Positions 4,393 through 57,901 of a stretch of 64,000 bases of DNA are shown in pieces. The first letter of the stretch is position 1. Every line of letters begins with the position of its first letter. The position numbers and the translations under genes were made by a program. This DNA comes from Candidatus Kerfeldbacteria bacterium RIFCSPLOWO2_02_FULL_42_19 (GTDB lineage: Bacteria > Patescibacteriota > Patescibacteriia > HO2-48-17), in assembly GCA_001818315.1 (NCBI GenBank), contig MHKF01000012.1, positions 251,149 through 315,148 of the forward strand. The letters are read 5' to 3'. Under the pieces are notes generated by a model, which saw only the letters and a list, made by a program, of their open reading frames with translations, searched no databases and was not told the origin of the DNA.

Positions 4393-4526
4393 GGAGAGTG
4401 CTCATGTTGGTGTGAAATGTTTTTACTATATCAAAAAGCTTCTATTACTGCAAAAGAAGAAAGAAATTTTGCTAAATTCAAAGGTATTTTTCTCCGCACC
4501 TTATTATGTGTTATGGGAATAGTTGA

Positions 4527-4555
4527 CATTTTCGCTTATTTGTTTTATGATGTAT
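4527..4555 (+). promoter_or_regulatory. Near-consensus sigma70 promoter (TTGACA-17-TATGAT) upstream of the 4716 gene
   Basis: ttgaca ttttcgcttatttgttt tatgat, read directly. Confidence 0.5.
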
Positions 4556-4715
4556 TTTATTATTTTAGAGTACGTTTTGTTTTACATTGAGAGATCAGTT
4601 TCTGAATGTCTTTAGGGTATTATTGCAAAAGGTCTTGACGATCTTCGACTTTACGATGCTCGACTTGTAATTTTTTACCCCCCCCTCTAAAATAAGAGCT
4701 ACGATCATTATTTCA

Positions 4716-6056
4716 TTGTTTATGCTGTATTTTATGCAATTTCGTTTTATAAAGTTATTTCTTTTCTTTTTCTTTGCTGCTTCGATTTTTATTTTTGTTT
4801 TTCAGGCTCACACTGCTCGAGCATTAGAGGAACCTGCGCTTACGGTCAGTAATATTCAAGCAGAAGCTGGTGATACGTTTGCGATCATATCTTTTACTGC
4901 GGAAAATGTACCTACCGCTGCCCAGGCGACCATAAAATACCGAAAAGATGGAGAAGATGTGACTTTTTCCACAGGCTCAAATTATTTTTATGATGGCGCG
5001 ACTTCAATACTGCTGTATGATCTGCTTCCACAAACAAAATATTTTTACACAGTGCTCATAGAAGAAGGAACCAGCTACGAAGATCTGTACAAGAGTTCTT
5101 CGAAATCTTTCACAACGAAAAATGTAGATTTTGTGTCCCTGAGTCGTGTCACTCCATCAAAAGCAAAACCTGGCGCAGAGGTGACGATAGAGGGTAAAGG
5201 TTTTGGGAAACGAGCTGGCGAGGTTATTTTTGGCTATTGTTTTGCGGAATGCAAAGGCACGATTGTTTCATGGACCGATATAAAAATTGTTGCTACAGTT
5301 GGAACCCGTGCGACGAATGGGCCAGTCACCGTGCATGCATATCCTGCCTCTGGTTTTCGAAGCACGATTTACAGTAAAGAAGTTCGTGGGGGTGATGTCA
5401 CCGTCAATAATGGAGATACGAGTTATTTTGTTATTGATCGGAGAAAATGCGGTCAAGGAATTCGAGCAAAAACCTATAATGAGATAGCGAATATTAACAA
5501 TATTTACTTTGCAGAATACGGTCGAGGCGCTGGATGTAATGAATTGACATTCCATGTGCAACGACGCACACCGCATGATCGATTGCGCGATTGGTTGCGT
5601 ACGCAGGACGAAGGAAAATGGTGGCAGAAGATTACGAAGAATTACATGGGTAAAACTATTTATGATGCGAAAACAGGAATTTATCTCGTGACTCCAAGCG
5701 GTCTGCGTCGAGTACATGATTTCCAGACCGCGCTTGCGTGGGGATTGATTATCGATGATGCTAAACTTGTAGAAGATTTTTATGATCCAGCAAAAGGCTA
5801 TGCTGAAAAGTATATACACTCGGGTGTACGATCATACGGTGACTATGAAAATCAACTATTGTACCGAAACGGTCCTTACTTCGATGCGATTGAAGCTTTT
5901 CTGGGCGGGGAAGAGATCGATACGGGGAATGCGAGACTTGATAGCTATATCGAAGATCATCAGAACCTGATTATAAAAATGAATCCGATGGATACCGATG
6001 ACGAGGACTATCGCGATATTTGCACGGATCACTTACGGTGTGGAAAGAGATATTAA
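4716..6056 (+). CDS. Secreted hypothetical protein with an N-terminal FN3-like domain and an IPT/TIG-like domain
   Basis: Hydrophobic signal/anchor (FIKLFLFFFFAASIFIFVF). An FN3-like segment (TVSNIQAEAGDTFAIISF...YFYTV). A TIG-like segment (VSLSRVTPSKAKPGAEVTIEGKGFG). The C-terminal half matches no family I recognise. Confidence 0.6.
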   Translation: MFMLYFMQFRFIKLFLFFFFAASIFIFVFQAHTARALEEPALTVSNIQAEAGDTFAIISFTAENVPTAAQATIKYRKDGEDVTFSTGSNYFYDGATSILLYDLLPQTKYFYTVLIEEGTSYEDLYKSSSKSFTTKNVDFVSLSRVTPSKAKPGAEVTIEGKGFGKRAGEVIFGYCFAECKGTIVSWTDIKIVATVGTRATNGPVTVHAYPASGFRSTIYSKEVRGGDVTVNNGDTSYFVIDRRKCGQGIRAKTYNEIANINNIYFAEYGRGAGCNELTFHVQRRTPHDRLRDWLRTQDEGKWWQKITKNYMGKTIYDAKTGIYLVTPSGLRRVHDFQTALAWGLIIDDAKLVEDFYDPAKGYAEKYIHSGVRSYGDYENQLLYRNGPYFDAIEAFLGGEEIDTGNARLDSYIEDHQNLIIKMNPMDTDDEDYRDICTDHLRCGKRY

Positions 6057-26018: not shown

Positions 26019-26291
26019 TTCTATGATCAAAATGTATTTTTCACAGGCGAAAGCGCATTCGGCGGCAGTTTCATAAAGGTATTTTTTATTTAGCCATTTT
26101 TTTTATTTTCAACTTGATCATTCCGCGTCAGCTTGCTACGCGGAGGTTCATTTGGAGTAAGTTTGACATTTTCTTTATTTTGTGATATAATTTTATTCCA
26201 AATTCAGGATTGTGAAAGTGCGTCGTGCGCTCTAAGCAATCGCTGAAGGAACCTTAAAAATTCAACAAATGAGCGACCAGCGTTTGTAAAG

Positions 26292-34004: not shown

Positions 34005-34257
34005 AGTTTTCTCCTTAGTTAGTGCACTTTCGTCATTGCACTGATTGATTGTGATGTCGAAGTACGATCTCTACAAACAAAAATTCTGGCTTGTATGCCA
34101 GAATCTCGGTATCATGTTTTGATTATTTTTATGCATGATTATTCCTCCATATTGTTCTTCGAGATTTTGACATACGAGTATCGCTCCGCGTAAAAATCGG
34201 AGATCCATTGTTTCCAGACGATATATATTGTCGTGCGAGGGTCAACATCACCTTATT

Positions 34258-34305
34258 TTAACTTGATAATTCCGCGCTAGCTTGATGCGCCGGTTTCATT
34301 CTCAG
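34258..34305 (+). repeat. Conserved about 45-nt motif (family C), copy 2 of 3
   Basis: ttttaacttgataattccgcgctagcttgatgcgccggtttcatt. Compare the copies at 26108 and 53088. Confidence 0.7.
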
Positions 34306-47929: not shown

Positions 47930-48727
47930 ATGCTCTATAAAGAACTCATACAACTTGGACTTTCGGAAAAAGAAGCGAAGGTTTATCTTGCTTCTTTGGA
48001 ATTAGGTAAAGCGACGGTGCAAAAAATCGCGGAAAAGTCAGGCGTGAATCGCGCTACGACGTATTTTATTTTAGAGTCGTTACTCAAGCTTGGACTTGTT
48101 TCGACCTATGATCAGGACAAAAAAACGTATTTTAGCGCAGAGCCGCCGGAACTTTTGATTAATCTTTTAAAAAAACAAGAAGCTGAGATTCACCAAAAGG
48201 CCCGTAACTTTGAAAATATTTTGCCAGAACTGCGTTCCGTTTATAATCTTGCCGAGGATAAACCTCGAGTTCGTTTTTATGAGGGTAAAGATGGATTATT
48301 TGCGATTCAACAGGATTTTTTGCAGACGAATGATCGTAAGATCGAGACCGTTTTTTCACGAGACGATGTTGAAGAAGTTTTTACACAGCAGGAACGTGAG
48401 GAATATCTCAACAAGCGTTTAAATAAACAACTTCATTGTTTTGCTATTTATACACGAAAGGGCGGCTCATTTCTCCCTGATTCCGTGGGTCAAATGATGG
48501 CGGATGCGTATTATATTCCTTCTGATAAGTATCCCATATCATCAGATATCACCATTTATGATGATAAAATTGCCATGGCATCTTTACGCGGGAAATTATC
48601 AGGAGTGATTATTGAAAATAAGGAGATTGCGAATACTTTACGGAGTATTTTTTATCTTGCTCTTGAGACAGCAAAAACTTTTCGGAAAAAGGATTCATCA
48701 TCTGAGACTGATAAAACCCCATCTTAG
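47930..48727 (+). CDS. TrmB-family transcriptional regulator
   Basis: N-terminal wHTH (LGLSEKEAKVYLASLELGKATVQKIAEKSGVNRATTYFILESL), a coiled coil, and the TrmB C-domain. Confidence 0.8.
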   Translation: MLYKELIQLGLSEKEAKVYLASLELGKATVQKIAEKSGVNRATTYFILESLLKLGLVSTYDQDKKTYFSAEPPELLINLLKKQEAEIHQKARNFENILPELRSVYNLAEDKPRVRFYEGKDGLFAIQQDFLQTNDRKIETVFSRDDVEEVFTQQEREEYLNKRLNKQLHCFAIYTRKGGSFLPDSVGQMMADAYYIPSDKYPISSDITIYDDKIAMASLRGKLSGVIIENKEIANTLRSIFYLALETAKTFRKKDSSSETDKTPS

Positions 48728-49224: not shown

Positions 49225-50061
49225 ATGTCTTTGTTTCACGAACAACTCAAGGGTCTTGATTTTACCGATAAACAAATAGATATCTATCTGTATCTTTTAC
49301 GTGAAGTGCGTGCGTCGGCAAAACAGATTTACGAGTCGTTGCATCTCAATAAAGTCACCGCGTATAAAGTTTTGGATGAACTCGTTGAGATGGATGTGAT
49401 CGGTGTGATCCATGGCGAAGATGCTAAGCTCTATATTTGTAAACCGCCGGACCATCTCTGGAATGTCATTAATCGCAAACTCAAGACCCTGAATGAGCAA
49501 CGCAAGCTTTTGAAAAATGCTATTCCCGAACTTGTCGGTGAATATAATAAACACGCTTCTGCAAAACCACAGATTCGTTTTTACGAAGGCAAGAAAGGCT
49601 TAAGCGCCATTCGGAAGAGTTTTTTGGATGTGGCACAGAAGGAGATTTGTGGCATTTTCTCTGGTGACGATGTAGAACGTGTTTTTTCAGAAGCAGAACG
49701 TGTTTTGTTTTCTACTGAACGAAAAGCTCGTGGTATTCTGAGTCAGAGTATTTATACCCGCAGTCCCGGTCCGTATGCTGCTGCCGACGATCAGGCAATT
49801 CTTGCTCGGACGCATTATATTCGCGGCGAACGATTTCCTATTTTGAGTGACATCAGTATCTATGATAACAAGGTTGCGATTGCATCATTACGTGAACATT
49901 TATGGGGTGTCGTCATTGAAAATCACGCTATTGCCAAGACGCTACGCACGCTTTTTCTTTTAGCAGTTGAGGGCGTTCAGCATTTGCGTAGGTGTCAACA
50001 TCAATCTTCTTTCTCGACAGCGGCAACCCAAAAATCTAAAGTTACTACAAAACAAGTTTGA
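49225..50061 (+). CDS. TrmB-family transcriptional regulator (paralog of 47930..48727)
   Basis: Same architecture (DKQIDIYLYLLREV..., ...RFYEGKKGL..., ...SDISIYDNKVAIASLR...). It aligns along its whole length with the upstream paralog. Confidence 0.8.
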   Translation: MSLFHEQLKGLDFTDKQIDIYLYLLREVRASAKQIYESLHLNKVTAYKVLDELVEMDVIGVIHGEDAKLYICKPPDHLWNVINRKLKTLNEQRKLLKNAIPELVGEYNKHASAKPQIRFYEGKKGLSAIRKSFLDVAQKEICGIFSGDDVERVFSEAERVLFSTERKARGILSQSIYTRSPGPYAAADDQAILARTHYIRGERFPILSDISIYDNKVAIASLREHLWGVVIENHAIAKTLRTLFLLAVEGVQHLRRCQHQSSFSTAATQKSKVTTKQV

Positions 50062-50090
50062 CATATTTTTTGATCTCGGTATAATTCTTT
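50057..50090 (+). promoter_or_regulatory. Promoter (TTGACA-16-TATAAT) and leader of the rplJL operon
   Basis: ttgacatattttttgatctcggtataat, then an about 120-nt leader before rplJ. Confidence 0.55.
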
Positions 50091-50210
50091 TAAGCCGTAG
50101 AATACAGGTGTTCTCGTATTGCTTTTGCAAACCGGAACTTAATTGCCTGTCGAGGTAGATAAGATGATTGGTGTTTTATTTTATTCTGCGGTAGGTAACG
50201 CAGTTTTTTT

Positions 50211-50735
50211 ATGGCTAAAACTCGTACAGAAAAAGAAAATATTGTTCAGTCTTTAGGTAAACTCTTCAAGCAGAACGCAGGGATTGTGTTTGTTGCTTAT
50301 TCCCGAGTTTCGGTAAAGGATATGCTTGCGCTTCGTAGGGCCGTGAAACAGAGTCAATGCGGTGTGTCCGCAGTAAAGAAAACACTACTTACGCGTGCCT
50401 TAGTAATTGCTGGAGATACGTATGATGTCGGCACATTAAACGGTTCTGTCTTTGTGGGCTATGGCAGCGATCAAGTCGCTCTTGCGAAAGTGATCGATCG
50501 ATTTCGCAAAGAGCACGGAGAAAATATAAAGATGCTTGGCGGTATACTTGACCACACAGCGGTTTCGAGCGAGCAGATCATGTCACTTGCTCAACTTCCT
50601 TCACGAATGGAACTGACGGCACAATTCGTTGGAACTCTTGCAGCTCCGATTGTTGGGTTTGCACGAGTATTATCGGGAACAATGCAAAGTTTTGTGTACG
50701 CCCTGTCTGCTTTGCAGAAGAAAAAGGCTTTATGA
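50211..50735 (+). CDS. rplJ: 50S ribosomal protein L10
   Basis: KTRTEKENIVQSLGKLFKQNAGIVFVAYSRVSVKDMLALRRAV. Confidence 0.9.
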   Translation: MAKTRTEKENIVQSLGKLFKQNAGIVFVAYSRVSVKDMLALRRAVKQSQCGVSAVKKTLLTRALVIAGDTYDVGTLNGSVFVGYGSDQVALAKVIDRFRKEHGENIKMLGGILDHTAVSSEQIMSLAQLPSRMELTAQFVGTLAAPIVGFARVLSGTMQSFVYALSALQKKKAL

Positions 50736-51402: not shown

Positions 51403-53079
51403 TTAAAGGATCTCCTGCTGATAGCAGGGATTGCAGAAAATTTTTTCCGGACGCTCGGGAGCATATGTCGTTTCGAATTCCGTGGGACAGCGATTTTCGC
51501 TATGTTCTGAATGTTTGAGATCGCACTGACATTGACGGTGATAGAGTTGCAGCGGGTAATGACGCTTCCACCGCTTTTGAAAACGGCAAGCGGGACACAG
51601 GAGTGGAAGCGGTAAGTGCAGCAGTTTCAGCAGTTTCAATTCAATACTTTGGATGCGATAATTTTTTTTGCATTCAACGCAGGCGAGGATTTTTTCGAGA
51701 ATTATTTCTGCAACTTTTTCAATCTGTGAGTGGATGTCGGTAGCCCGCAACGTTTCTTTTCCATACAAACCTGCGGATTCATCCTGCCAGCGCCAACCTC
51801 GTACAAGCACTTTTTTCTTTGTCAGAGGAAAATAATCCTGCGACATCGTTTCGTTGTAGGTATGAGGACTATATTGTACTGGAAGAAATTCTCCCCATTC
51901 ACCGTCGTCGCGCATTTTGTTAATAATCTTTTTCCGCAGATCGTGATATTTCGTCTCTGAATACTGTTGATTGAGAATGCAAAATCGTTTTCCGCGGAGA
52001 CCCACGCATCCAAAGAGGTGATCCGAATTTTCACAAAAGAAGCAATACGCGATGAACATGCAGTCAGGACTCGTGTAAGAACAGGCGGCGCTGTTGAATC
52101 GAATCCCAGAATTTACTTCGTAACTGTTTTGTGAACCTAGAGTATGGTTCACGCGATAACAGTCCTTTGTTTTGAGCATGCGGAAACATTCACCGCAATT
52201 TTCATTTTCTATCATGTTAAAGCCCAAACGGATGTTTTTTGAAGATTCGATTGCCTCGCCGACGACGTTTTCGCTCTTTCGAATGATCGCGAATTCAACG
52301 GGAAACTTCAGAGAGTGTTGCGCAAAACGTTTTCGGTGTTCTTCGAAACTCTCGCGGTTTTTAAGTGCTTCCGTAAGACGCTTTCGGTATTCCACTTCAG
52401 GCAGCGACTCGTTAAACCAGTAAAATTTTTTGTGTTTGAGATTCACGCATCCGAAACAATTCTGACAGTCAGTAAGGTCACGGCCAAGGTAACATTCGTT
52501 GCAGTTATAAGCTCGTGTGAGGAAGGCGGAGCGATAGGAATAATATGTATAAACGCAATCATAAACGAGTTCACTGTGATACACTTGTAATCCATCCGCA
52601 CAGTCTTTTGACCAGTCTATGTTGCGGGAATATACAATGTTTTCAAGTTCTAAACCGCTGAATACAAGATAACAGTCCTTGCCGTCGAGGACGTAATTGA
52701 CGTATTCTGAATTGACGTTTTCTCCTGGTTGCCAGAGATTATAGTGTGGCACATGTGTGAGTAGTTGGTGGAGTTGTTCGAAAAATGGTTTTTGCGGATC
52801 ATATGTTTGCGCATATTTCATCGGATCCCATTGGTCAGAATACCAACATGGTCGGCAATATACGTGCGCGTATGAAGCGGGCGAATACATTGCAATGATA
52901 TTTTTTTTACACAATTCGCATTGACGACGATAGAGTGATGCTTCGTTGCGATATGTCATCCGACGCCGGTGAGCATCGGTCGCGCACAGTGTTGGTTCCG
53001 GAAGTTCAAGCGCGTTGAGTATTTTTTTGTCCTCAGTAGCAATACTGAAAGAAGTTTTGCATTCACGACACGTAGGCAT
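51403..53079 (-). CDS. Cysteine-rich protein of unrecognised family, paralog B (556 aa)
   Basis: About 40 Cys, mostly in CxxC pairs: CRECK, CELCKK, CRPCW, CNECYLGRDLTDCQNCFGC, CGEC, CVEC..CPACR, QCQC and CNPC. It has no signal peptide. It aligns along its whole length with 53188..54858. Confidence 0.6.
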   Translation of the reverse strand: MPTCRECKTSFSIATEDKKILNALELPEPTLCATDAHRRRMTYRNEASLYRRQCELCKKNIIAMYSPASYAHVYCRPCWYSDQWDPMKYAQTYDPQKPFFEQLHQLLTHVPHYNLWQPGENVNSEYVNYVLDGKDCYLVFSGLELENIVYSRNIDWSKDCADGLQVYHSELVYDCVYTYYSYRSAFLTRAYNCNECYLGRDLTDCQNCFGCVNLKHKKFYWFNESLPEVEYRKRLTEALKNRESFEEHRKRFAQHSLKFPVEFAIIRKSENVVGEAIESSKNIRLGFNMIENENCGECFRMLKTKDCYRVNHTLGSQNSYEVNSGIRFNSAACSYTSPDCMFIAYCFFCENSDHLFGCVGLRGKRFCILNQQYSETKYHDLRKKIINKMRDDGEWGEFLPVQYSPHTYNETMSQDYFPLTKKKVLVRGWRWQDESAGLYGKETLRATDIHSQIEKVAEIILEKILACVECKKNYRIQSIELKLLKLLHLPLPLLCPACRFQKRWKRHYPLQLYHRQCQCDLKHSEHSENRCPTEFETTYAPERPEKIFCNPCYQQEIL

Positions 53080-53087
53080 ATTATGAG

Positions 53088-53140
53088 TTTTTAACTTGAT
53101 AATTCCGCGTCAGCTTGCTGCGCGGAGATTCATTCGAGTT
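53088..53140 (+). repeat. Conserved about 45-nt motif (family C), copy 3 of 3, in the spacer between the two Cys-rich paralogs
   Basis: ttttaacttgataattccgcgtcagcttgctgcgcggagattcatt, with the internal hairpin tccgcg...cgcgga. Confidence 0.7.
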
Positions 53141-53187
53141 GCTGTGGTTAACAGCAATGTTTACTTGATGTATGTATACGATGCATT

Positions 53188-54858
53188 TTAAACTATCTCC
53201 TGTTGATAACATAGGTTGCAGAAAACTTTTTCCGGACGCTCGGGGGCATATGTCGTTTCGAATTCTGTGGGACAGCGTTTGTTGGTGTGCGCTGGGTGCT
53301 TCCGAGAGCAGTCGCACTGCCTTTGATATAGCCGCGGAAAAGGGATGCGCGACAGACGCTCGTTCAAGCGACATTCCGGACAGATCTTCGGCAGAGGGAG
53401 TGACAACGTACGTAACACCTGCAACTCCTTTGGCTGAATGCGGTAGTTAAGATCGCACGTCGCACAGACAAGAATAGCTTTGGTAATATCTGACGAGGTT
53501 TGTTTGATCGAAGCGGGTATGTGTTCAATCGAGAGTGTTTCTTTGCCGCGAATTCCGCCATGATTGTTTTCAAATTGCCAACCCTTGGCAAGCACCTCTT
53601 CGCGTGTTAGGGGAAATAACTCAATCGCAGCCGAATCGTTGTAGGCATGCGGGCTGTATTTCACCGGTGGAAATTCACCCCATTCATCGCATTGTTGCAT
53701 GTTGGTAACAATCTGCTGACGTAACCGCTCATACTCCTCTTGAGTGTATTGTTTATTGAGAACGCAGAATTTTTTCTTTCTTAAGCCGACGCAGCCGAAA
53801 ATGTTATCACAATTGGCACAGAAGAAAGAATAGGCCATGAACGAACAACCCTCAGCCATCATGGAACAGAGTGTATAAGACGTGGTCAAACCTCCGCCGA
53901 TGTATTCGTACATGTTTTCAATAAAACCAGCATTACTCACACGGTACGCATTTTTAGTTTGATAGGTAATCCGATAGGCATCTCCTATATTTTCAGAATC
54001 CTGTAATCCGAAGGAATAACGCACATTTACGGCATTAAAGATCCCATCACCCGAGCAATTTTCGCTTTTGCGGATCACGGCATACTCGACTAGAAATTGT
54101 TTGGCATGTTCGGAGAAACGCTGTCGGTGCTGTTGAATGCTTGTCCGGTCCTTCAACGCTTCTTTCAGCCGGCGCTTGTATTTTGTTTCCGAAAGCGCTT
54201 CGTTATACCAATAAAAACGTTTGTGCTTCAGATTGACGCAACCGAAGCAGTCATGGCAGTCCGCCAAATCCCTGCCGAAATAGCAATCTGAGCAGCGCTC
54301 GCATCGTGTTAAGAAAGCGCTCTTGAAACTTTCGCGTGCGTAAACACAATCATATAAAAGTTCTGAACTGTGAATGAATATATTATCGACGCAGTCTCGA
54401 CACTGATCATTATTTTTGTTATAGACACAGCCTTCGGATTTGAGACAGGAAAAGGAGAGGTAACAATCCTTGCTGTTCCATGTGAAATTTGTATAAATAG
54501 AATTTACGACGTTCCCTATTTGAAATACGTTAAAGTTGGGCACCTGTTTCATCAGATCCAACCATTGATCAAAAAACGGCCGATTCGGATTATAGTCACG
54601 GCCGTATTGCAGAGGATCCCATTTGTCCGAATACCAACAATCGCGGCAGTACACATGCGCATACGAAGCTGGCGAATACATGGCAAGCAGAGATTTACCG
54701 CACATCTCGCACTGGCGACGGTTAAAGATGTCGTTCATTGCGATAGGCGAGCCGCCGCTGTAGTGAGTGTTCAAAACACAGCTTGGGTTCCGGCACCTGC
54801 AAAAGAGAAAGAATTTTTTTGTCTTCTGAATGGACGGAGAAAGATATGTTACATTCAC
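53188..54858 (-). CDS. Cysteine-rich protein of unrecognised family, paralog A (556 aa)
   Basis: Shares long identical blocks with paralog B: YSPASYAHVYCR, DCYL.FS, SELLYDCVY, SAFLTR, DCxxCFGCVNLKHK.FYW.NE, VIRKSEN, FGCVGLR.K.FC.LN.QY, DEWGEF.PV.YSPH.YN and RCPTEFETTYAPERPEK.FCN.CYQQEI. Confidence 0.6.
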   Translation of the reverse strand: MNVTYLSPSIQKTKKFFLFCRCRNPSCVLNTHYSGGSPIAMNDIFNRRQCEMCGKSLLAMYSPASYAHVYCRDCWYSDKWDPLQYGRDYNPNRPFFDQWLDLMKQVPNFNVFQIGNVVNSIYTNFTWNSKDCYLSFSCLKSEGCVYNKNNDQCRDCVDNIFIHSSELLYDCVYARESFKSAFLTRCERCSDCYFGRDLADCHDCFGCVNLKHKRFYWYNEALSETKYKRRLKEALKDRTSIQQHRQRFSEHAKQFLVEYAVIRKSENCSGDGIFNAVNVRYSFGLQDSENIGDAYRITYQTKNAYRVSNAGFIENMYEYIGGGLTTSYTLCSMMAEGCSFMAYSFFCANCDNIFGCVGLRKKKFCVLNKQYTQEEYERLRQQIVTNMQQCDEWGEFPPVKYSPHAYNDSAAIELFPLTREEVLAKGWQFENNHGGIRGKETLSIEHIPASIKQTSSDITKAILVCATCDLNYRIQPKELQVLRTLSLPLPKICPECRLNERLSRIPFPRLYQRQCDCSRKHPAHTNKRCPTEFETTYAPERPEKVFCNLCYQQEIV

Positions 54859-54901
54859 AACATCGCGGCATAGAGCAAGTTTATAAATGGCAGTTTTCCG
54901 A

Positions 54902-57160
54902 TTATTGACTGATGCTTACTCGGTAAAGCTGCACGTTATTAAGGAAGTAGAGTATTTTTTCGTCATTACTGATTGCGAAATCGCGAATGTCAGTGAATCG
55001 CTCGGAGATATATTGTCCGACGAGTTGTCCCTCTTTTGTGAGAATCACGATGCGGCGATTTTTTCCATCGAGTATATAAATATTTTTGCCTTCTTCCAGT
55101 GTGGTGATTTTTCGCGCTTCGGAAAATTTCGGTTCCATAGCGAATTGTTTGAATTCCGGATCTTTGTTACCGGCAAAAAGTTTGATGATTGTCCCATCTT
55201 TTTTAAGTACATAAATCGCGCCATCGATTGCGATTGAAACTGCGTCACGTATATCAACATTCGTATCGCTGATCCAATTCTCTCCTTTGCCGAAACCGCT
55301 CGCCGTTTTGATATGTTTTTGAATTTGATTTTTTTCGGCATCGAGCACGTACAGTCTCCCTCCATAGAAGTTCAGATCCGACGCTTGTTTTTCGCTTGTT
55401 GAAAATTCAACCTGAACATCTGTCAATGTTTTCTTTTCGAGATCAATGTTTTTCAATGCCGCGCCTTGAGTGAATCCCATCAAAACATCATTATTTTTAG
55501 TCATAGTTTTGATTGCATCTTGTGTTTCGGAATTCTCGACGAATATCTCTGGATTTTCGTCTTCCTTTGCCGTATACATTGTGCCGTTTGTCGCGTCAGT
55601 CACTAAGAATTTGTCTTGTAAAACCATGAGTGCACCAAGTGATAGATTTGCATTGATGCTCGAAAAATCCGCAACAACTTGTGCTTCGTTATCGAAATTC
55701 CGTATATGATTTATTTCATTCAGTTGCGTTTGTATTTCCTTTTTTTTCGGTTCGACTTTTTCTTGATATACAGAGATAGTTTCCGGAATGCTAGCCAGGA
55801 TTGTTTGTGCCTCAATCAGAAACGCACGGGCTCCTTCTTCATTTTTATAAAGAAGCGCAGCCTTTGATTCATCTATTTTTTTTGCGGCGTCGTCGATCTT
55901 CGTTTCATATTCCAGAAGACTTTTTTCTTCCTCACGTTTGCTGCCTTGATGCATAATACTTTGTGCGAAAAGTACTATGAAAATGATAGACAAGAGCAAT
56001 AAAATTTTTCTCGGCCGAGACAGTCTTTGGAAAGCGAGGATGATTCTTGCAAGTATACCCCCTGTTCTTTGTGGAAAATGCACCATTTTTGCGGGGAATC
56101 TTTTGACTTTGTCTTTTTGTAATAGGCTCCACACGCTTCGTAACAATATACTGAGTCCCTTTGTTATCCAGTATGTGATTTTTTTGCATCCTTCAAATAT
56201 CAAGAGGAGTGCGCGTTTCATTGATGGTGGGATGTGTTGCTTGGATTGTTTTTTTTCTTCTTTTTTGTCCTCTTGTTTCGCAGGTGTGAAGTATTTTTGA
56301 TTATTTTTTTCTTTGAAAGAAGACAAATTTGTTTTTATTTTTGGCCAGAGAGATGGAGTTAAGAGTTCGTGAGTAGTTTGTTCTTTTTGTATGAGACTTT
56401 GCATGGAATCTTGCACTTCGTCCGTAAGTGTTTCCTTTGTTCCAGTGATGAAATTCGTTCCCGACAAGACTTCACTTTCAGTTTTTACAATAATCCCAGC
56501 GAAATTATGAGTTTGGCTTTGAGAGAGAATTTCGGTAAAATTTCGTATCGCCTCCTCGGTCGTATTCTCTTGGATAATCCGTTTTATTTTTTCTTGCGAA
56601 AAAAAGTCTAAAATACTCTCAGTGCTAAAAAACATACTATCACCTTCGCGAATATTCCCTGAAAGAATACTTGAAAAGAGTTTGAGTGGATTTACGTTAG
56701 CATGTGTATTCTCTTGCTGGAGAATATCCAGAATACGATCGTTTTGTATGAGAAATCCTTGTACTTTACCAGCCGATGTGATGTGCACTTCCTGATCTTT
56801 TGCAATCGCAATGATCGCATGGAAGTGCTTGAACCATTCGTCGCCGTACGCAGCGGTAATATTTTGCAAAAGTTGATTTGTTTGTTGTAAGGCATTTTCA
56901 AATGCGACTTCGATAATAAATTCTTCTGCGCAATAATAGTTGGTCGCTATACTTTTTTGGATTTTGGTAAATATCTCATCAGCTTTGTTTTGAAAATTTG
57001 TAAGCTCAAGCAATAAAAAAAGCTTCCCGAAGTTTTTTTCTTCCAAGGGAGTGGGTTGAGCGATAAAAATATGGCACGCCGATCCTTGAGCTGTGTTGTT
57101 GACTATAAATTCTTGGAATTTCAATCTCGGCTGTGATTTTGTGAGTGTGTTTGACTTCAT
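54902..57160 (-). CDS. Transmembrane signalling protein: cytoplasmic PP2C-like (possibly degenerate) domain, TM segment, extracytoplasmic beta-propeller-like domain
   Basis: N-terminal blocks resemble the PPM fold (KLFLLLEL, AIIAIAKDQEVHITSAGKVQGFLI, GDSMFFSTESILDFF). There is a TM segment (ILLLLSIIFIVLFAQSI). The C-terminus has repeated blade motifs (GRLYVLDAEKNQI, GAIYVLKKDGTII, KNIYILDGKNRRIVIL). The domain assignment is tentative. Confidence 0.5.
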   Translation of the reverse strand: MKSNTLTKSQPRLKFQEFIVNNTAQGSACHIFIAQPTPLEEKNFGKLFLLLELTNFQNKADEIFTKIQKSIATNYYCAEEFIIEVAFENALQQTNQLLQNITAAYGDEWFKHFHAIIAIAKDQEVHITSAGKVQGFLIQNDRILDILQQENTHANVNPLKLFSSILSGNIREGDSMFFSTESILDFFSQEKIKRIIQENTTEEAIRNFTEILSQSQTHNFAGIIVKTESEVLSGTNFITGTKETLTDEVQDSMQSLIQKEQTTHELLTPSLWPKIKTNLSSFKEKNNQKYFTPAKQEDKKEEKKQSKQHIPPSMKRALLLIFEGCKKITYWITKGLSILLRSVWSLLQKDKVKRFPAKMVHFPQRTGGILARIILAFQRLSRPRKILLLLSIIFIVLFAQSIMHQGSKREEEKSLLEYETKIDDAAKKIDESKAALLYKNEEGARAFLIEAQTILASIPETISVYQEKVEPKKKEIQTQLNEINHIRNFDNEAQVVADFSSINANLSLGALMVLQDKFLVTDATNGTMYTAKEDENPEIFVENSETQDAIKTMTKNNDVLMGFTQGAALKNIDLEKKTLTDVQVEFSTSEKQASDLNFYGGRLYVLDAEKNQIQKHIKTASGFGKGENWISDTNVDIRDAVSIAIDGAIYVLKKDGTIIKLFAGNKDPEFKQFAMEPKFSEARKITTLEEGKNIYILDGKNRRIVILTKEGQLVGQYISERFTDIRDFAISNDEKILYFLNNVQLYRVSISQ

Positions 57161-57313
57161 GAGTATGATAATGTTGTTATTGTAGCGGAACTCTTTTCTT
57201 TATTCAAGATTTTTTTATTATGAAATTTTTTTTATTTTTTGTCAATAAATTTTCAAAAAAACACAAGTGTTCTATAATAATCTCAGTTCTGATGAATTTT
57301 AATACTCCACGAT

Positions 57314-57901
57314 ATGCTTGAACAACTTTTTGGTTCACGCACCCGACTCAAACTTTTGAAGATTTTTTTACTTCGCCGGCAAAAAAAATATTACGTGCGT
57401 GAGCTCACTCGTCTTGCTGGCGAACATATCAATTCTGTGCGTCGAGAGCTTGCTCATCTTGAATCACTGGATCTCCTTAGTTCCGAGACGGTTGATAAGA
57501 AAAAGTTTTATACTGCACATCCACACAGCCTTTTGTATCCGGAATTACGTGCGCTTTTGTACAAGGCGCGACTCACAACCGAAAAAATATTTGTTGATCA
57601 CATGAAAGCACTTGGAACAGTATCGTATCTTGCGTTACTGGGTATGTTTACAGGTTCTGAAGCTTCTGATGCTCAGGCGCCAACGGATATCTTTATTGTT
57701 GGCAATGTGCATCGCGGAAAACTTGATGCTTTATTGCATATGCTTCAACCTGATTTTGATCGTCAGATTTATTATACAATTATGACCCCTCAAGAATTTC
57801 AATACCGTCTGGATATTACGGATAAATTTGTTTTTGATATCCTTCGAAGTAAAAAAATAGTGATTATTGATACTCTCAATGTACAAGATCAGCACGGGTA
57901 A
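57314..57901 (+). CDS. Winged-helix (ArsR/MarR-like) DNA-binding regulator with an uncharacterised C-domain
   Basis: RTRLKLLKIFLLRRQKKYYVRELTRLAGEHINSVRRELAHLESLDLL is a wHTH. It is divergently transcribed from the 57160 operon. Confidence 0.6.
   Translation: MLEQLFGSRTRLKLLKIFLLRRQKKYYVRELTRLAGEHINSVRRELAHLESLDLLSSETVDKKKFYTAHPHSLLYPELRALLYKARLTTEKIFVDHMKALGTVSYLALLGMFTGSEASDAQAPTDIFIVGNVHRGKLDALLHMLQPDFDRQIYYTIMTPQEFQYRLDITDKFVFDILRSKKIVIIDTLNVQDQHG

Follow-up and report, generated by a model that had tools for sequence, protein, structure and literature searches.

The gene pair

Two adjacent genes on the minus strand of contig MHKF01000012.1 (Candidatus Kerfeldbacteria bacterium RIFCSPLOWO2_02_FULL_42_19) code for cysteine-rich paralogs and lie beside a gene for a membrane protein and a divergently transcribed wHTH gene, which raises the question of what the paralogs do and whether the four genes work as one unit, as a sequence-only reading of this DNA had proposed. 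The window is the whole stretch analysed, 64,000 nucleotides (contig positions 251,149 to 315,148), and all coordinates refer to it. The pair comprises the following features:

51403..53079, minus strand: paralog A, intact 558-aa member of a Zn-module/double beta-solenoid family, 33 Cys
53188..54871 (GTG ORF from 54858), minus strand: paralog B, same family as A, gene disrupted by a +1 frameshift
51424..51492, minus strand: homogenised 3' tract in A, codons 530-552, RCPTEFETTYAPERPEKIFCNPC
53209..53277, minus strand: homogenised 3' tract in B, counterpart of the A tract
53088..53134, minus strand: hairpin-bearing dispersed 47-nt repeat between B and A, with the 3' end just upstream of the A ATG

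Paralog A has the same sequence as P0001, annotated as a 'hypothetical protein' of Candidatus Kerfeldbacteria, and is recognised by the family profile with 786 bits. As the sequence-only reading had stated, the two proteins are paralogs (52% identity over 510 aligned residues), are cytoplasmic with no TM or signal-like segment in either, carry many CxxC pairs (11 in A and 11 in B), and contain the Trp/Tyr-type conserved blocks that it had quoted. The cysteine content, put by that reading at about 40 each, is 33 in A and 37 in the frame-corrected B. Both proteins are indeed unclassified, with no significant match in Pfam, NCBIfam, PADLOC, or PHROGs, no sequence relative in the PDB, and no significant Foldseek match.

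The near-identity of the 3' ends at the DNA level is confirmed, with 62 of 69 nt identical, and the same codon is chosen at 17 of 20 same-amino-acid positions versus 41% elsewhere (binomial P = 7e-5). A DNA-level match to the tract was sought in the other family loci and none was found, which makes local gene conversion between A and B the best reading. The spacer motif, previously given as 45 nt, is real but measures 47 nt and is dispersed, occurring at three places in the window (53088-53134, 26106-26152, and 34256-34290) where none is expected by chance; the B-A spacer folds with z = -2.6, and the repeat has no match in Rfam.

A frameshift in paralog B

The earlier description of both paralogs as 556-aa ORFs does not apply to B, whose GTG ORF opens with 46 residues of out-of-frame sequence. 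The disruption involves three features:

54721..54727, minus strand: frameshift site CTTTAAC, in which one extra A turns a conserved Tyr codon TAC into TAA-C
54722..54871, minus strand: N-terminal B fragment with the first Zn-ribbon (MPRCCEC...RNERHL), 49 codons closed by TAA
53188..54738, minus strand: putative 516-aa product of B that would arise by re-initiation at an internal ATG and miss only the first Zn-ribbon

Specifically, the true ATG of B is at 54871, and the frame that it opens reaches the TAA inside CTTTAAC after 49 codons. By tblastn, residues 1-49 of A map to 54871-54725 in a frame other than that of the main ORF of B, and the N-terminal fragment is 55% identical to these residues. 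Removing one A from CTTTAAC restores ...RNERHLYRRQCEMC... and a 560-aa protein with 37 Cys, and the affected residue, Tyr50, is nearly invariant across the family. The frameshift is identical in four assemblies (three samples and an NCBI MAG), and a search of the 90% cluster of B retrieved no intact allele.

Programmed +1 frameshifting as in prfB (RF2) was considered for B and rejected: although the site reads CUU UAA C, it has no SD-like element upstream, a +1 slip would swap the near-invariant Tyr for Asn, the reading frame is unbroken in 203 other family copies, and in the few disrupted ones the break lies at other positions. Because the one-base frameshift falls after codon 49, B would be either a recent pseudogene or a gene whose product is made as an N-terminally shortened protein; intact members shortened at the N-terminus occur elsewhere (L095:2823-4262 and L093:6705-8120).

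Fold and predicted zinc sites

The AF2 model of paralog A (pLDDT 92.7, pTM 0.90) has a symmetric domain order: a Zn module stands at each end, the C-terminal one being a copy of the N-terminal one, and between them two homologous beta-solenoids flank a helical hairpin. Each Zn module consists of a Cys4 Zn-ribbon, a basic Arg-rich helix (CPxCRxQRRxxxRNER after each Zn-ribbon), and a treble-clef Cys4 finger, and the solenoids are narrow, with 12 residues per turn. The internal duplication is supported by hhalign, which aligns the N-module with the C-module at 99.7% probability and solenoid 1 with solenoid 2 at 99.85%. The Zn modules are basic (pI 8.3-8.8), the solenoids are acidic, the median pI of the whole protein is 6.3, and the C-terminus is very strongly conserved across the family.

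Among 463 members, the four Cys4 sites behave in an all-or-none manner: CCCC is found in 406 members at 4/7/32/35, in 297 at 54/57/75/78, in 376 at 467/470/495/498, and in 458 at 517/531/549/552, and when a site is lost its whole ligand set vanishes together. The first site (4/7/32/35) has Asp or His as its fourth ligand in A and B. The solenoid cysteines point inwards at every third residue and form a 12-residue ladder with mixed patterns and 40-76% occupancy. As judged from alignment and model, the many cysteines are four structural Cys4 sites, predicted to bind zinc, and a Cys ladder lining the solenoid cores, and the metal- or redox-linked role previously suggested for them is not upheld.

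The question of metals nonetheless deserves separate treatment, as the last solenoid coil reads CxxCxxCxxC and is complete in 239 of 463 members (52%), so that metal binding at this coil could be conceived. A metal-handling or redox protein, in which the solenoid cores, and this terminal coil in particular, would serve storage, buffering, or electron transfer by holding Fe-S clusters or metal-ion chains, would make sense of the 33-37 Cys per chain and of the CutA1 and CysRS genes found near the arrays described below (in 4 and at least 4 loci, respectively). It is very unlikely, though, given that mixed patterns at such occupancy are typical of interchangeable core residues, that the first Cys of the coil is missing from A as well as from B, and that A, B, and 18 relatives have no Pfam or NCBIfam match to 4Fe-4S ferredoxin, radical SAM, or rubredoxin profiles, an exclusion already made by the sequence-only reading. 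The Fe-S reading of the CxxCxxC(xxC) coil was rejected on the same grounds, the signature set not being conserved. A left-handed beta-helix (hexapeptide) acyltransferase or gamma-carbonic anhydrase was also considered and discarded, with no significant structural or profile match.

The neighbouring divergent pair

Upstream of B lie the two genes that had been assigned to the same module:

54902..57160, minus strand: 752-aa membrane protein whose N-terminal PP2C-like domain is followed by a TM segment (about residue 380), a stalk of coiled helices, and an NHL-type propeller at the C-terminus
57314..57901, plus strand: wHTH gene, 195 aa, divergent partner of the 752-aa gene

Both had been correctly recognised, the former as a PP2C-like domain with one TM and a propeller, the latter as a divergently transcribed regulator. 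In the AF2 model of the 752-aa protein (pLDDT 82.5), Foldseek identifies the PP2C fold (tPphA, PstP, PppA, and SpoIIE; E 1e-9 to 1e-8, TM 0.57-0.71) and the NHL propeller (E 2e-10), while HMM comparison matches the propeller to PknD 1rwi (E 4e-6) and, weakly, the PP2C region to 6ihl (E 0.004). At what we take to be the PP2C motif positions (DGxGG, SDG/DN), the sequence GDSMFFSTE stands in the place of GD...SDG and the SDG position reads FxT/STE; within residues 1-230, an alignment of 37 homologues contains no metal-binding Asp that is invariant or nearly so. The PP2C-like domain is probably an inactive pseudophosphatase. The wHTH protein has weak ArsR/HVO_A0114 matches and a match to PADLOC PDC-M05A (E 5e-29).

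In three other Patescibacteria (L009, L010, and L011), the wHTH gene and the 752-aa homologue form a divergent pair that abuts rplL-rplJ, the wHTH homologues being 45-52% identical and in the same divergent position, and no Cys-rich gene is present there. Moreover, blastp and tblastn searches for both proteins in the loci of the nearest relatives of A and B (L004, L006, and L007) found neither, and the pair does not recur among the neighbours of 80 genome loci as grouped by clustering. The comparison indicates that the wHTH and 752-aa genes are a separate conserved divergent pair, apart from the system to which A and B belong. Because this pair abuts rplL elsewhere without Cys-rich genes and is absent beside the nearest relatives, A and B are taken as an insertion between the wHTH/PP2C-like-sensor pair and the rplL-rplJ operon, with no functional tie based on conservation.

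These observations bear directly on the proposal, which is extremely unlikely, that A, B, the 752-aa protein, and the wHTH protein make up a single dedicated module, for signalling or processing, with a metal or redox link. The genes for A, B, and the 752-aa protein are adjacent and co-oriented, only 30 nt separate the stop of the 752-aa gene from the B ATG with no terminator-like site between them on the minus strand, and a strong promoter-like site precedes the 752-aa gene; yet the arrangement is not kept in other genomes, and the supposed operon amounts to possible read-through at most. Furthermore, the PP2C-like family has no conserved catalytic Asp, the cysteines behave as structural residues, and one of the two paralogs is disrupted. 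The conserved four-gene module is largely refuted, as the synteny whose absence the sequence-only reading had itself named as decisive is indeed absent from the loci compared.

Family distribution and tandem arrays

The family to which A and B belong comprises at least 5,988 representative clusters at 50% identity (E <= 1e-3); its members are soluble, and lengths are uniform (540-600 aa) among the 150 best listed clusters. Of 1,028 matches, every one with a named source is a Patescibacteria 'hypothetical protein', and the best 80 of at least 592 matches in GTDB species genomes all fall in CPR lineages except for one contig labelled Gammaproteobacteria, which is likely mis-binned. Among taxon-labelled matches, and this contig aside, the family is restricted to Patescibacteria. 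Searches of phages and plasmids did not detect it, and viral contigs gave one marginal match. No literature on the family was found; the family, its architecture, and its gene association are undescribed, while the constituent folds (Zn-ribbon, treble clef, and beta-solenoid) are known.

Co-oriented arrays of 2-8 family copies are present in 65 loci of an 83-locus set, 80 of which are the best-matching genome loci and which is non-random and phylogenetically non-independent. For only 14 of 184 copies is the best match a co-located paralog, and sequence comparison suggests that array paralogs are anciently diverged and vertically kept. Arrays recur near dnaK/dnaJ/grpE, TrmB regulators, and ribosomal genes, which may be a mere matter of conserved chromosome position, and further neighbours include rpoA and translation genes. 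Toxin-antitoxin genes lie in or beside some arrays (AbiEii in L007, Gp49/HTH in L004).

This setting is compatible with stand-alone nucleic-acid-binding proteins, whose basic Zn-ribbon modules would grip DNA or RNA at both ends of a rigid solenoid, for example in nucleoid organisation, in the handling of taken-up DNA, or in association with ribosomes or RNA, with no involvement of ATPases. The basic Arg-rich helices and the pI of the modules, the frequent proximity of arrays to ribosomal, rpoA, and translation genes, and the long-term retention in reduced genomes agree with such a role. Conversely, known nucleic-acid-binding Zn modules are unmatched beyond generic treble-clef/LIM-like similarity (E 0.02), the proteins are near neutral overall, and the core-gene neighbourhood may be positional only, so that this alternative is rather unlikely.

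ATPases encoded beside the arrays and proposed function

The proposed function rests on an association with ATPase-like genes, 39 of which occur in 24 of the 83 loci (31 full length, 27 of those with Walker A). Most are co-oriented with the nearest family gene (35/39), and 17/39 lie within 100 nt of one; in three extra loci that were inspected, the association was seen in 3/3. The ATPases are soluble and VirD4/TrwB/HerA-like, with Pfam matches to PF10412 (E 1e-5 to 1e-14), PF02534, PF12696, and PF01935, and are often interleaved with family arrays. Eight of them carry a CxxC-x17-CxxC finger, which in L022:7703-9703, the one tested, is zf_Tbcl_2 by Pfam (E 1e-11), and an L095 ATPase has zf_Tbcl_2 by precomputed annotation. 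No TM-like segment is found in 25 of the 27 Walker-A ATPases. Four Walker-A-less relatives, with 1-3 N-terminal TM-like segments each and a DUF8128 annotation in two loci, often accompany the ATPases, in gene orders that include D-T-F-F-F-F (D, Walker-A-less relative; T, ATPase; F, family gene).

Some 70% of the sampled arrays lack an ATPase within ~6 kb, and no VirD4/HerA-type ATPase was found in the 64-kb window, the link resting on other genomes. Patescibacteria genomes are about 1 Mb in size, and because such a genome holds about two T4CP homologues, we estimate that chance would place an ATPase within ~14-20 kb in a few percent of loci, versus the 29% (24/83) observed. In this phylum, where orphan T4CP homologues have expanded and are sited away from virB4, 5,713 VirD4-like T4CP homologues have been counted in 2,918 genomes, only 148 of them near virB4 (PMC12102498).

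Our preferred interpretation, held at even confidence, is that A and B are a small array of an undescribed Zn-module/double-solenoid family whose members would act as non-enzymatic, zinc-stabilised adaptors, scaffolds, or cargo for VirD4/HerA-like ATPases. This role is proposed because the arrays often interleave with VirD4/TrwB/HerA-type ATPases, the treble-clef finger of the family recurring in some of them. The family proteins would work as non-enzymatic subunits with orphan 'coupling-protein-like' ATPases, the conserved basic Zn modules may be the handles for docking or for binding nucleic acid, and paralog-specific surfaces may be offered by the solenoids, which vary more. A more ambitious version, which we regard as unlikely, is that thousands of orphan VirD4-like ATPases find in this family their missing partners, either cargo or adaptors that confer specificity, and would form with them and the membrane-anchored Walker-A-less relative a CPR-specific translocation or remodelling machine. 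Such a machine would combine a split coupling protein with an array of interchangeable rod-shaped subunits and could serve the episymbiotic lifestyle through DNA or protein traffic with the host. In a bolder variant still, the Cys-lined solenoid cores may hold a chain of metal ions.

The same ATPase linkage could instead mark the family as secreted or translocated effectors, cargo of the ATPase or of a CPR type IV system, in which the Cys ladder oxidises to a disulfide-braced rod like that of TmAFP at the host or cell surface and paralog diversity reflects host range. The 12-residue TmAFP-like coil with its Cys ladder, the match of one relative to PF02420, the very strongly conserved C-terminus, which could act as a recognition signal, and the confinement of the family to an episymbiotic phylum speak for this possibility. 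Nevertheless, it is fairly improbable: the proteins have no signal peptide or TM segment, four tightly folded Zn sites and stable solenoids are ill suited to export that requires unfolding, type IV secretion genes, virB4 included, are missing from the loci with Pfam-annotated genes, and the arrays, old and passed on vertically, are not fast-evolving. In addition, a T4CP homologue of Southlakia is reported to be non-essential for epibiotic growth (PMC12102498).

An anti-phage or conflict system, with diversified sensor paralogs and a HerA/FtsK-type ATPase, is highly improbable. The ATPases do match the PADLOC mad8 and HerA models (E 1e-10 to 1e-6) and PHROG 5156 (E 1e-50), and the AbiEii and Gp49/HTH genes in or beside arrays would fit; however, the family itself has no PADLOC match and is absent from phages and plasmids, its arrays are old, vertically transmitted, and set in core chromosomal surroundings, and its near-ubiquity across CPR lineages is unlike the patchiness of defence islands.

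Many Patescibacteria give 5-15 kb of their ~1-Mb genomes to these arrays, and an important function is argued for them because the paralog lineages are ancient and have been retained in genomes of this size. The repeated linkage of the family to soluble VirD4/HerA-like ATPases provides a testable handle on a question raised by PMC12102498, namely the role of more than 5,000 T4CP homologues away from type IV secretion loci. As for annotation, the mis-called ORF of the frameshifted B is corrected, and two unrelated units with the look of one operon are told apart.

Comparison with known systems

The family solenoids resemble TmAFP (PDB 1ezg; Pfam AFP PF02420) in their 12-residue coil with a Cys ladder, and other narrow beta-solenoids were compared as well (curli CsgA 8c50 and ryegrass IBP 3ult). 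Unlike these proteins, to which identity is 7-10%, the family has no signal peptide, and its solenoids are flanked by Zn modules and FGCVGLRxKxY caps; the likeness extends to the fold alone, and nothing points to homology or a common function. The 752-aa neighbour taken alone is similar to PstP and PknD-type NHL sensors, with a PP2C fold, one TM, and an NHL propeller, but differs from PP2C phosphatases in having no conserved Asp in 37 homologues. LIM/CRP fingers align weakly with the family C-terminal pattern C-x2-C...H...C-x17-C-x2-C over 40 residues at a non-significant E of 0.02-0.2, whereas the family is bacterial and in another context.

T4CPs (VirD4/TrwB/TraG) and HerA/FtsK enter the comparison through the ATPases that are genomically coupled to the family in other genomes. 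True T4CPs have an N-terminal membrane anchor, which is missing from 25/27 of the family-adjacent Walker-A ATPases, and no known T4CP substrate or adaptor resembles the family. A domain-level likeness is to zf_Tbcl_2 (PF23477) and zf_Tbcl (PF13451), as the N-module and its C-terminal copy contain RxCxxCxK-x(5)-YxP-x(5)-VYCxxCW. Among 18 aligned relatives, 8 match PF23477 (E < 0.01, best 3.7e-9) and 3 match PF13451, while B scores 16.1 bits against PF23477 (E 0.009), below the 27-bit gathering score, and A has no match; profile comparison thus places a putative zf_Tbcl_2 finger at the family level, sub-threshold in A and B. This Pfam domain without known function covers about 35 of 560 residues, in contrast to the full family architecture, and it is also carried by ATPases adjoining the family arrays.

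The paralog pair

Two adjacent genes of the window, which comes from a Candidatus Kerfeldbacteria MAG of Rifle groundwater, represent a minimal, partly decayed instance of a family of Cys-rich proteins with terminal Zn modules and two beta-solenoids.

51403-53079, minus strand: paralog A, ORF of 558 aa
53188-54858, minus strand: paralog B as called from GTG, ORF of 556 aa

The view of the sequence-only reading that these are adjacent minus-strand paralogs is borne out by BLASTP (52% identity and 73% positives over 510 residues), and the conserved Trp/Tyr blocks that it quoted are found in the paralogs, while its count of about 40 cysteines each is not: A has 33, with 11 CxxC pairs, and the corrected B has 37. 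A is 100% identical to a Candidatus Kerfeldbacteria 'hypothetical protein'. The near-identity of the 3' DNA of the two genes was also upheld, as 62 of 69 nt are identical between A 51424-51492 and B 53209-53277 (overall nucleotide identity, 57.5%), and the same codon is used at 17 of the 20 identical amino acids in this tract versus 41% elsewhere (P = 7e-5). The identity is specific to this pair because no other locus, including those with ~50%-identical orthologues, matches at the DNA level; local gene conversion between A and B would be the best explanation.

The '45-nt conserved motif' previously noted between the paralogs exists as a 47-nt dispersed repeat, GAATGAAnCTCCGCGCAGCAAGCTGACGCGGAATTATCAAGTTAAAA, with three copies in the window:

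53088-53134, minus-strand orientation: repeat copy
26106-26152, minus-strand orientation: repeat copy
34256-34290, minus-strand orientation: repeat copy

A hairpin lies within the repeat; each of the three copies is intergenic, their flanks are unrelated, and zero copies are expected by chance. Rfam gave no match for it and the related loci of other genomes lack it; a role as regulatory RNA, operator or REP-like element is possible. The sole Rfam match of the spacer and region lies upstream of rplJ-rplL:

50077-50218, plus strand: ribosomal protein L10 leader (Rfam RF00557, 51.5 bits, above the gathering score)

A frameshift in paralog B

B had been taken for an intact 556-aa ORF, but the gene is frameshifted. 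Residues 1-49 of A are placed by tblastn at 54871-54725 (55% identity), one base off the frame of the main ORF of B. Read from the ATG at 54871, B gives MPRCCECNISFSVHSEDKKILSLLQVPEPKLCFEHSLQRRLAYRNERHL and then a TAA within CTTTAAC (54721-54727), and the deletion of one A from this site restores ...RNERHLYRRQCEMC..., yielding a corrected B of 560 aa. Because this restored reading agrees with A and with the family consensus, the 46 leading residues of the GTG ORF are out of frame.

An assembly error is unlikely, since four assemblies (three samples and an NCBI MAG) share the frameshift sequence exactly; the 90% cluster contains no intact B allele, and the one other locus compared for strain variation is 100% identical over 5,758 nt. 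A programmed +1 frameshift would fit the resemblance of CUU-UAA-C to the prfB site, but it is rejected because no SD-like stimulator lies upstream, the slip would turn a near-invariant Tyr into Asn, and the site does not recur in the family, where 203 of ~215 other copies read as one ORF and the few that are disrupted break elsewhere. With programmed frameshifting rejected, B is a copy that was disrupted recently. From the in-frame ATG at 54738 it could give a 516-aa product missing only the first Zn-ribbon. Members of ~470-480 aa that are intact but shortened at the N-terminus occur naturally in other genomes (L095:2823-4262 and L093:6705-8120); they lack the entire N-terminal Zn module and begin at ...YGRDYDFNKPFFEQ..., which argues that this module is dispensable in some paralogs.

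Architecture and cysteine patterns

The AF2 model of A, built on a 116-sequence alignment, is confident (pLDDT 92.7, pTM 0.90) and divides the protein as follows.

Segments of paralog A in the AF2 model
Residues 1-100: Zn-ribbon with helices and second finger
Residues ~113-226: beta-solenoid 1
Residues 228-256: helical hairpin
Residues ~270-370: beta-solenoid 2
Between solenoid 2 and the C-terminal Zn module: helix and linker
Residues ~461-558: C-terminal Zn module

The protein is internally duplicated, as hhalign pairs the N-module with the C-module (probability 99.7%, E 1e-26) and solenoid 1 with solenoid 2 (probability 99.85%, E 1e-30). The Zn modules are conserved and basic (pI 8.3-8.8) and the solenoids are more variable and mildly acidic; as this acidity is mild and the overall pI is ~6.3, a DNA-mimic reading is unsupported. 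No functional relative emerged from the profile and structure searches proposed for the paralogs: Foldseek of the A model against the PDB gave nothing at E < 1e-3, and the PDB sequence profile search gave just weak LIM-like similarity in the C-terminal part (E 0.02).

Across 463 members aligned to the family profile, four Cys sets are kept all-or-none: 4/7/32/35 is CCCC in 406, 54/57/75/78 in 297 (elsewhere the set is lost together), 467/470/495/498 in 376 and 517/531/549/552 in 458. On account of this conservation the sets are inferred to be structural Cys4 zinc sites. The fourth ligand of site 1 is replaced by Asp35 in A and His35 in B, a minority state in the family. The cysteines outside these sets all belong to the solenoids and fall in one residue class modulo 3 on a 12-residue ladder (136/148/160/172 etc.), with an occupancy of 40-76% in mixed combinations; they are core residues of a very narrow coil that point inward and can replace one another. 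Of all the coils, just the last, 202/205/208/211 (CxxCxxCxxC), is complete in roughly half of the members, and A and B both lack its first Cys. The family has no ferredoxin or radical-SAM signature, as the sequence-only reading had maintained; the redox side of the metal- or redox-linked role that it proposed, and any Fe-S reading, are rejected on the Cys co-occurrence patterns in these 463 members.

Size and range of the family

The paralogs are indeed unclassified, with no significant match of A or B in Pfam, NCBIfam, PADLOC or PHROGs. The sole recurrent domain among 18 relatives is zf_Tbcl_2, a treble-clef finger of unknown function (8/18). A word-indexed search returned 1,028 matches, and all those with a source name are Patescibacteria 'hypothetical protein' entries. 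The family comprises 5,988 clusters at 50% identity with E <= 1e-3 (2,497 at E <= 1e-30), and protein length is uniform in the best 150 of the 5,988 (540-600 aa). A profile from the 18-sequence alignment found at least 592 matches in GTDB species genomes; the best 80 are all from CPR lineages (Parcubacteria groups, Peregrinibacteria/Peribacteria, Gracilibacteria and bins labelled Saccharibacteria), except one Gammaproteobacteria-labelled bin. This 15-kb contig (L074, CAYYTZ010000020.1, 'uncultured Gammaproteobacteria') carries five tandem copies and is probably a mis-binned CPR contig. Phage and plasmid collections gave no matches and IMG/VR a single marginal one, and a phage or plasmid origin is unsupported.

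The neighbouring genes

Two genes next to the pair had been joined with it in a dedicated four-gene module.

54902-57160, minus strand: 752-aa protein
57314-57901, plus strand: 195-aa wHTH protein, with a full-length match (E 5e-29) to PDC-M05A, a PADLOC candidate-defence model

The PP2C-like/TM/propeller reading of the 752-aa protein was right. Its AF2 model (pLDDT 82.5) matches by Foldseek the PP2C phosphatases tPphA, PstP and PppA (E ~1e-9, TM 0.62-0.71) and NHL propellers (Brat; E 2e-10, TM ~0.67-0.70), a profile search matches the PknD sensor propeller (E 4e-6), and a TM segment lies at about residue 380. Because no Asp, catalytic positions included, is conserved in the PP2C-like region across 37 homologues, the protein is probably a sensor of the pseudophosphatase kind, its NHL propeller being extracytoplasmic.

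Among 41 homologues of the 752-aa protein, the context was inspected in three long contigs (L009, L010, L011). In all three, a wHTH gene 45-52% identical to that of the window is divergently paired with the homologue, and convergent rplL-rplJ follows, immediately in two contigs and, in the third, beyond two small ORFs; farther on lie AA-kinase, YceG, NTP-transferase, BacA and YdjM genes in varying subsets. None of the three has a Cys-rich gene at this locus. The window has the same backbone, into which the Cys-rich pair has been inserted between the 752-aa gene and rplL. Moreover, neither the 752-aa protein nor the wHTH was found by blastp or tblastn beside the nearest family relatives (L004, L006, L007), and the wHTH/752-aa pair is not recurrent among the clustered neighbours of 80 genome loci. 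The four-gene module is thus not conserved, since the 752-aa/wHTH pair occurs without the Cys-rich gene in three genomes, and the proposed synteny with the 752-aa neighbour fails at L004, L006 and L007. Present beside rplL in at least four Patescibacteria genomes, the divergent wHTH and PP2C-like/NHL pair resembles a core regulatory unit more than part of a defence island.

The operon claim comes down to possible read-through from the best promoter-like site, upstream of the 752-aa gene, as the gap to B is 30 nt and no terminator-like site was found on the minus strand between the 752-aa gene, B and A; co-transcription of the three genes would be incidental, the arrangement not being conserved.

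Two further regulator genes lie between the AA-kinase gene and rplJ, an interval that in related genomes holds a small unrelated gene or nothing.

47930-48727, plus strand: TrmB-family regulator
49225-50061, plus strand: TrmB-family regulator, paralogous to the preceding one

TrmB regulators adjoin Cys-rich arrays in 9 of 83 family loci and also in L093, and may be regulators of the family.

Family arrays and ATPases

Elsewhere, 65 of the 83 family loci hold 2-8 copies within ~6 kb, almost always co-oriented, with at least seven family genes in L007 and nine family-sized ones in L095. The arrays consist of ancient paralog lineages: a co-located paralog is the best match for only 14 of 184 copies and the median within-array identity is 40%.

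Outside the family, the commonest neighbour encodes a P-loop ATPase with matches to TrwB_AAD_bind, T4SS-DNA_transf, TraG-D_C and HerA/DUF87. Such ATPase-like genes number 39 and occur in 24 of the 83 loci (31 full length, 27 of these with Walker A). Of the 39, 35 share the orientation of the family gene closest to them and 17 lie no more than 100 nt from a family gene, and the association recurs in all three additional loci, picked on contig size alone. The observed 29% (24/83) compares with a few percent expected by chance within 14-20 kb, by our own estimate from about two T4CP homologues per ~1-Mb genome and with phylogenetically non-independent loci. The 64-kb window has no such ATPase.

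A CxxC-x17-CxxC finger is present in eight of these ATPases; the one tested in Pfam (L022:7703-9703) scores as zf_Tbcl_2 (E 1e-11), a domain that precomputed annotation also assigns to an L095 ATPase. TM-like segments are absent from 25 of the 27 Walker-A ATPases, and the four Walker-A-less relatives have one to three N-terminal TM-like segments each. The positions of these relatives are taken by homologues of the genes annotated as DUF8128 in L094 and L095, and the usual gene orders are D-T-F-F(-F-F) or D-F-T-F-T-F (D, Walker-A-less relative; T, ATPase; F, family gene). Such relatives lie directly upstream of soluble Walker-A VirD4/HerA-like ATPases in L018, L022, L043, L045 (2621-3973 plus 4502-5971), L082, L094 and L095, those of L094 and L095 being annotated as DUF8128. 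The two together look like a coupling protein split into anchor and motor.

Other genes also recur near arrays: dnaK, dnaJ and grpE in 11, 10 and 7 of the 83 loci, respectively, and PaaX/Cas2-like regulators, ribosomal and rpoA genes. Toxin-antitoxin-type genes lie in or beside arrays, namely AbiEii with a 217-aa partner (L007:4723-6208) and Gp49/HigB-like with an HTH protein (L004:9749-10379). Cysteinyl-tRNA synthetase genes occur near arrays in at least four loci (L006:16975-17680, L068:5612-6967 and others) and CutA1 divalent-ion-tolerance genes in four (for example L050:12918-13346), which may be a positional coincidence.

Possible function and comparison with known systems

The descriptive claims (the family, its architecture, the frameshift and the insertion) carry high confidence. 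As to function, the proteins may be exported effectors or stand-alone nucleic-acid binders, or may serve in metal handling or defence. The most likely role is that of non-enzymatic adaptors, scaffolds or cargo for orphan coupling-protein-like ATPases, because each protein has four predicted structural metal sites and two rigid rods, with conserved basic modules at its ends and no catalytic signature, and the genes form arrays linked to ATPases. In this adaptor role, the Zn modules would be constant handles for docking or nucleic-acid binding and the solenoids paralog-specific surfaces. The ATPase partnership is put forward tentatively, with somewhat less than even confidence.

To our knowledge, neither the family nor its symmetric architecture, its arrangement in arrays or its association with ATPases has been described: no description was found in the literature on the family, DUF8128, zf_Tbcl or CPR Cys-rich solenoids, and no Pfam/NCBIfam model or solved relative. 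On the ATPase side, 5,713 VirD4-like T4CP homologues have been reported in 2,918 Patescibacteria genomes, only 148 of them near virB4, and the authors raised their possible exaptation (PMC12102498). The component folds of the family are already known, and its solenoid is, like that of TmAFP, a very narrow coil.
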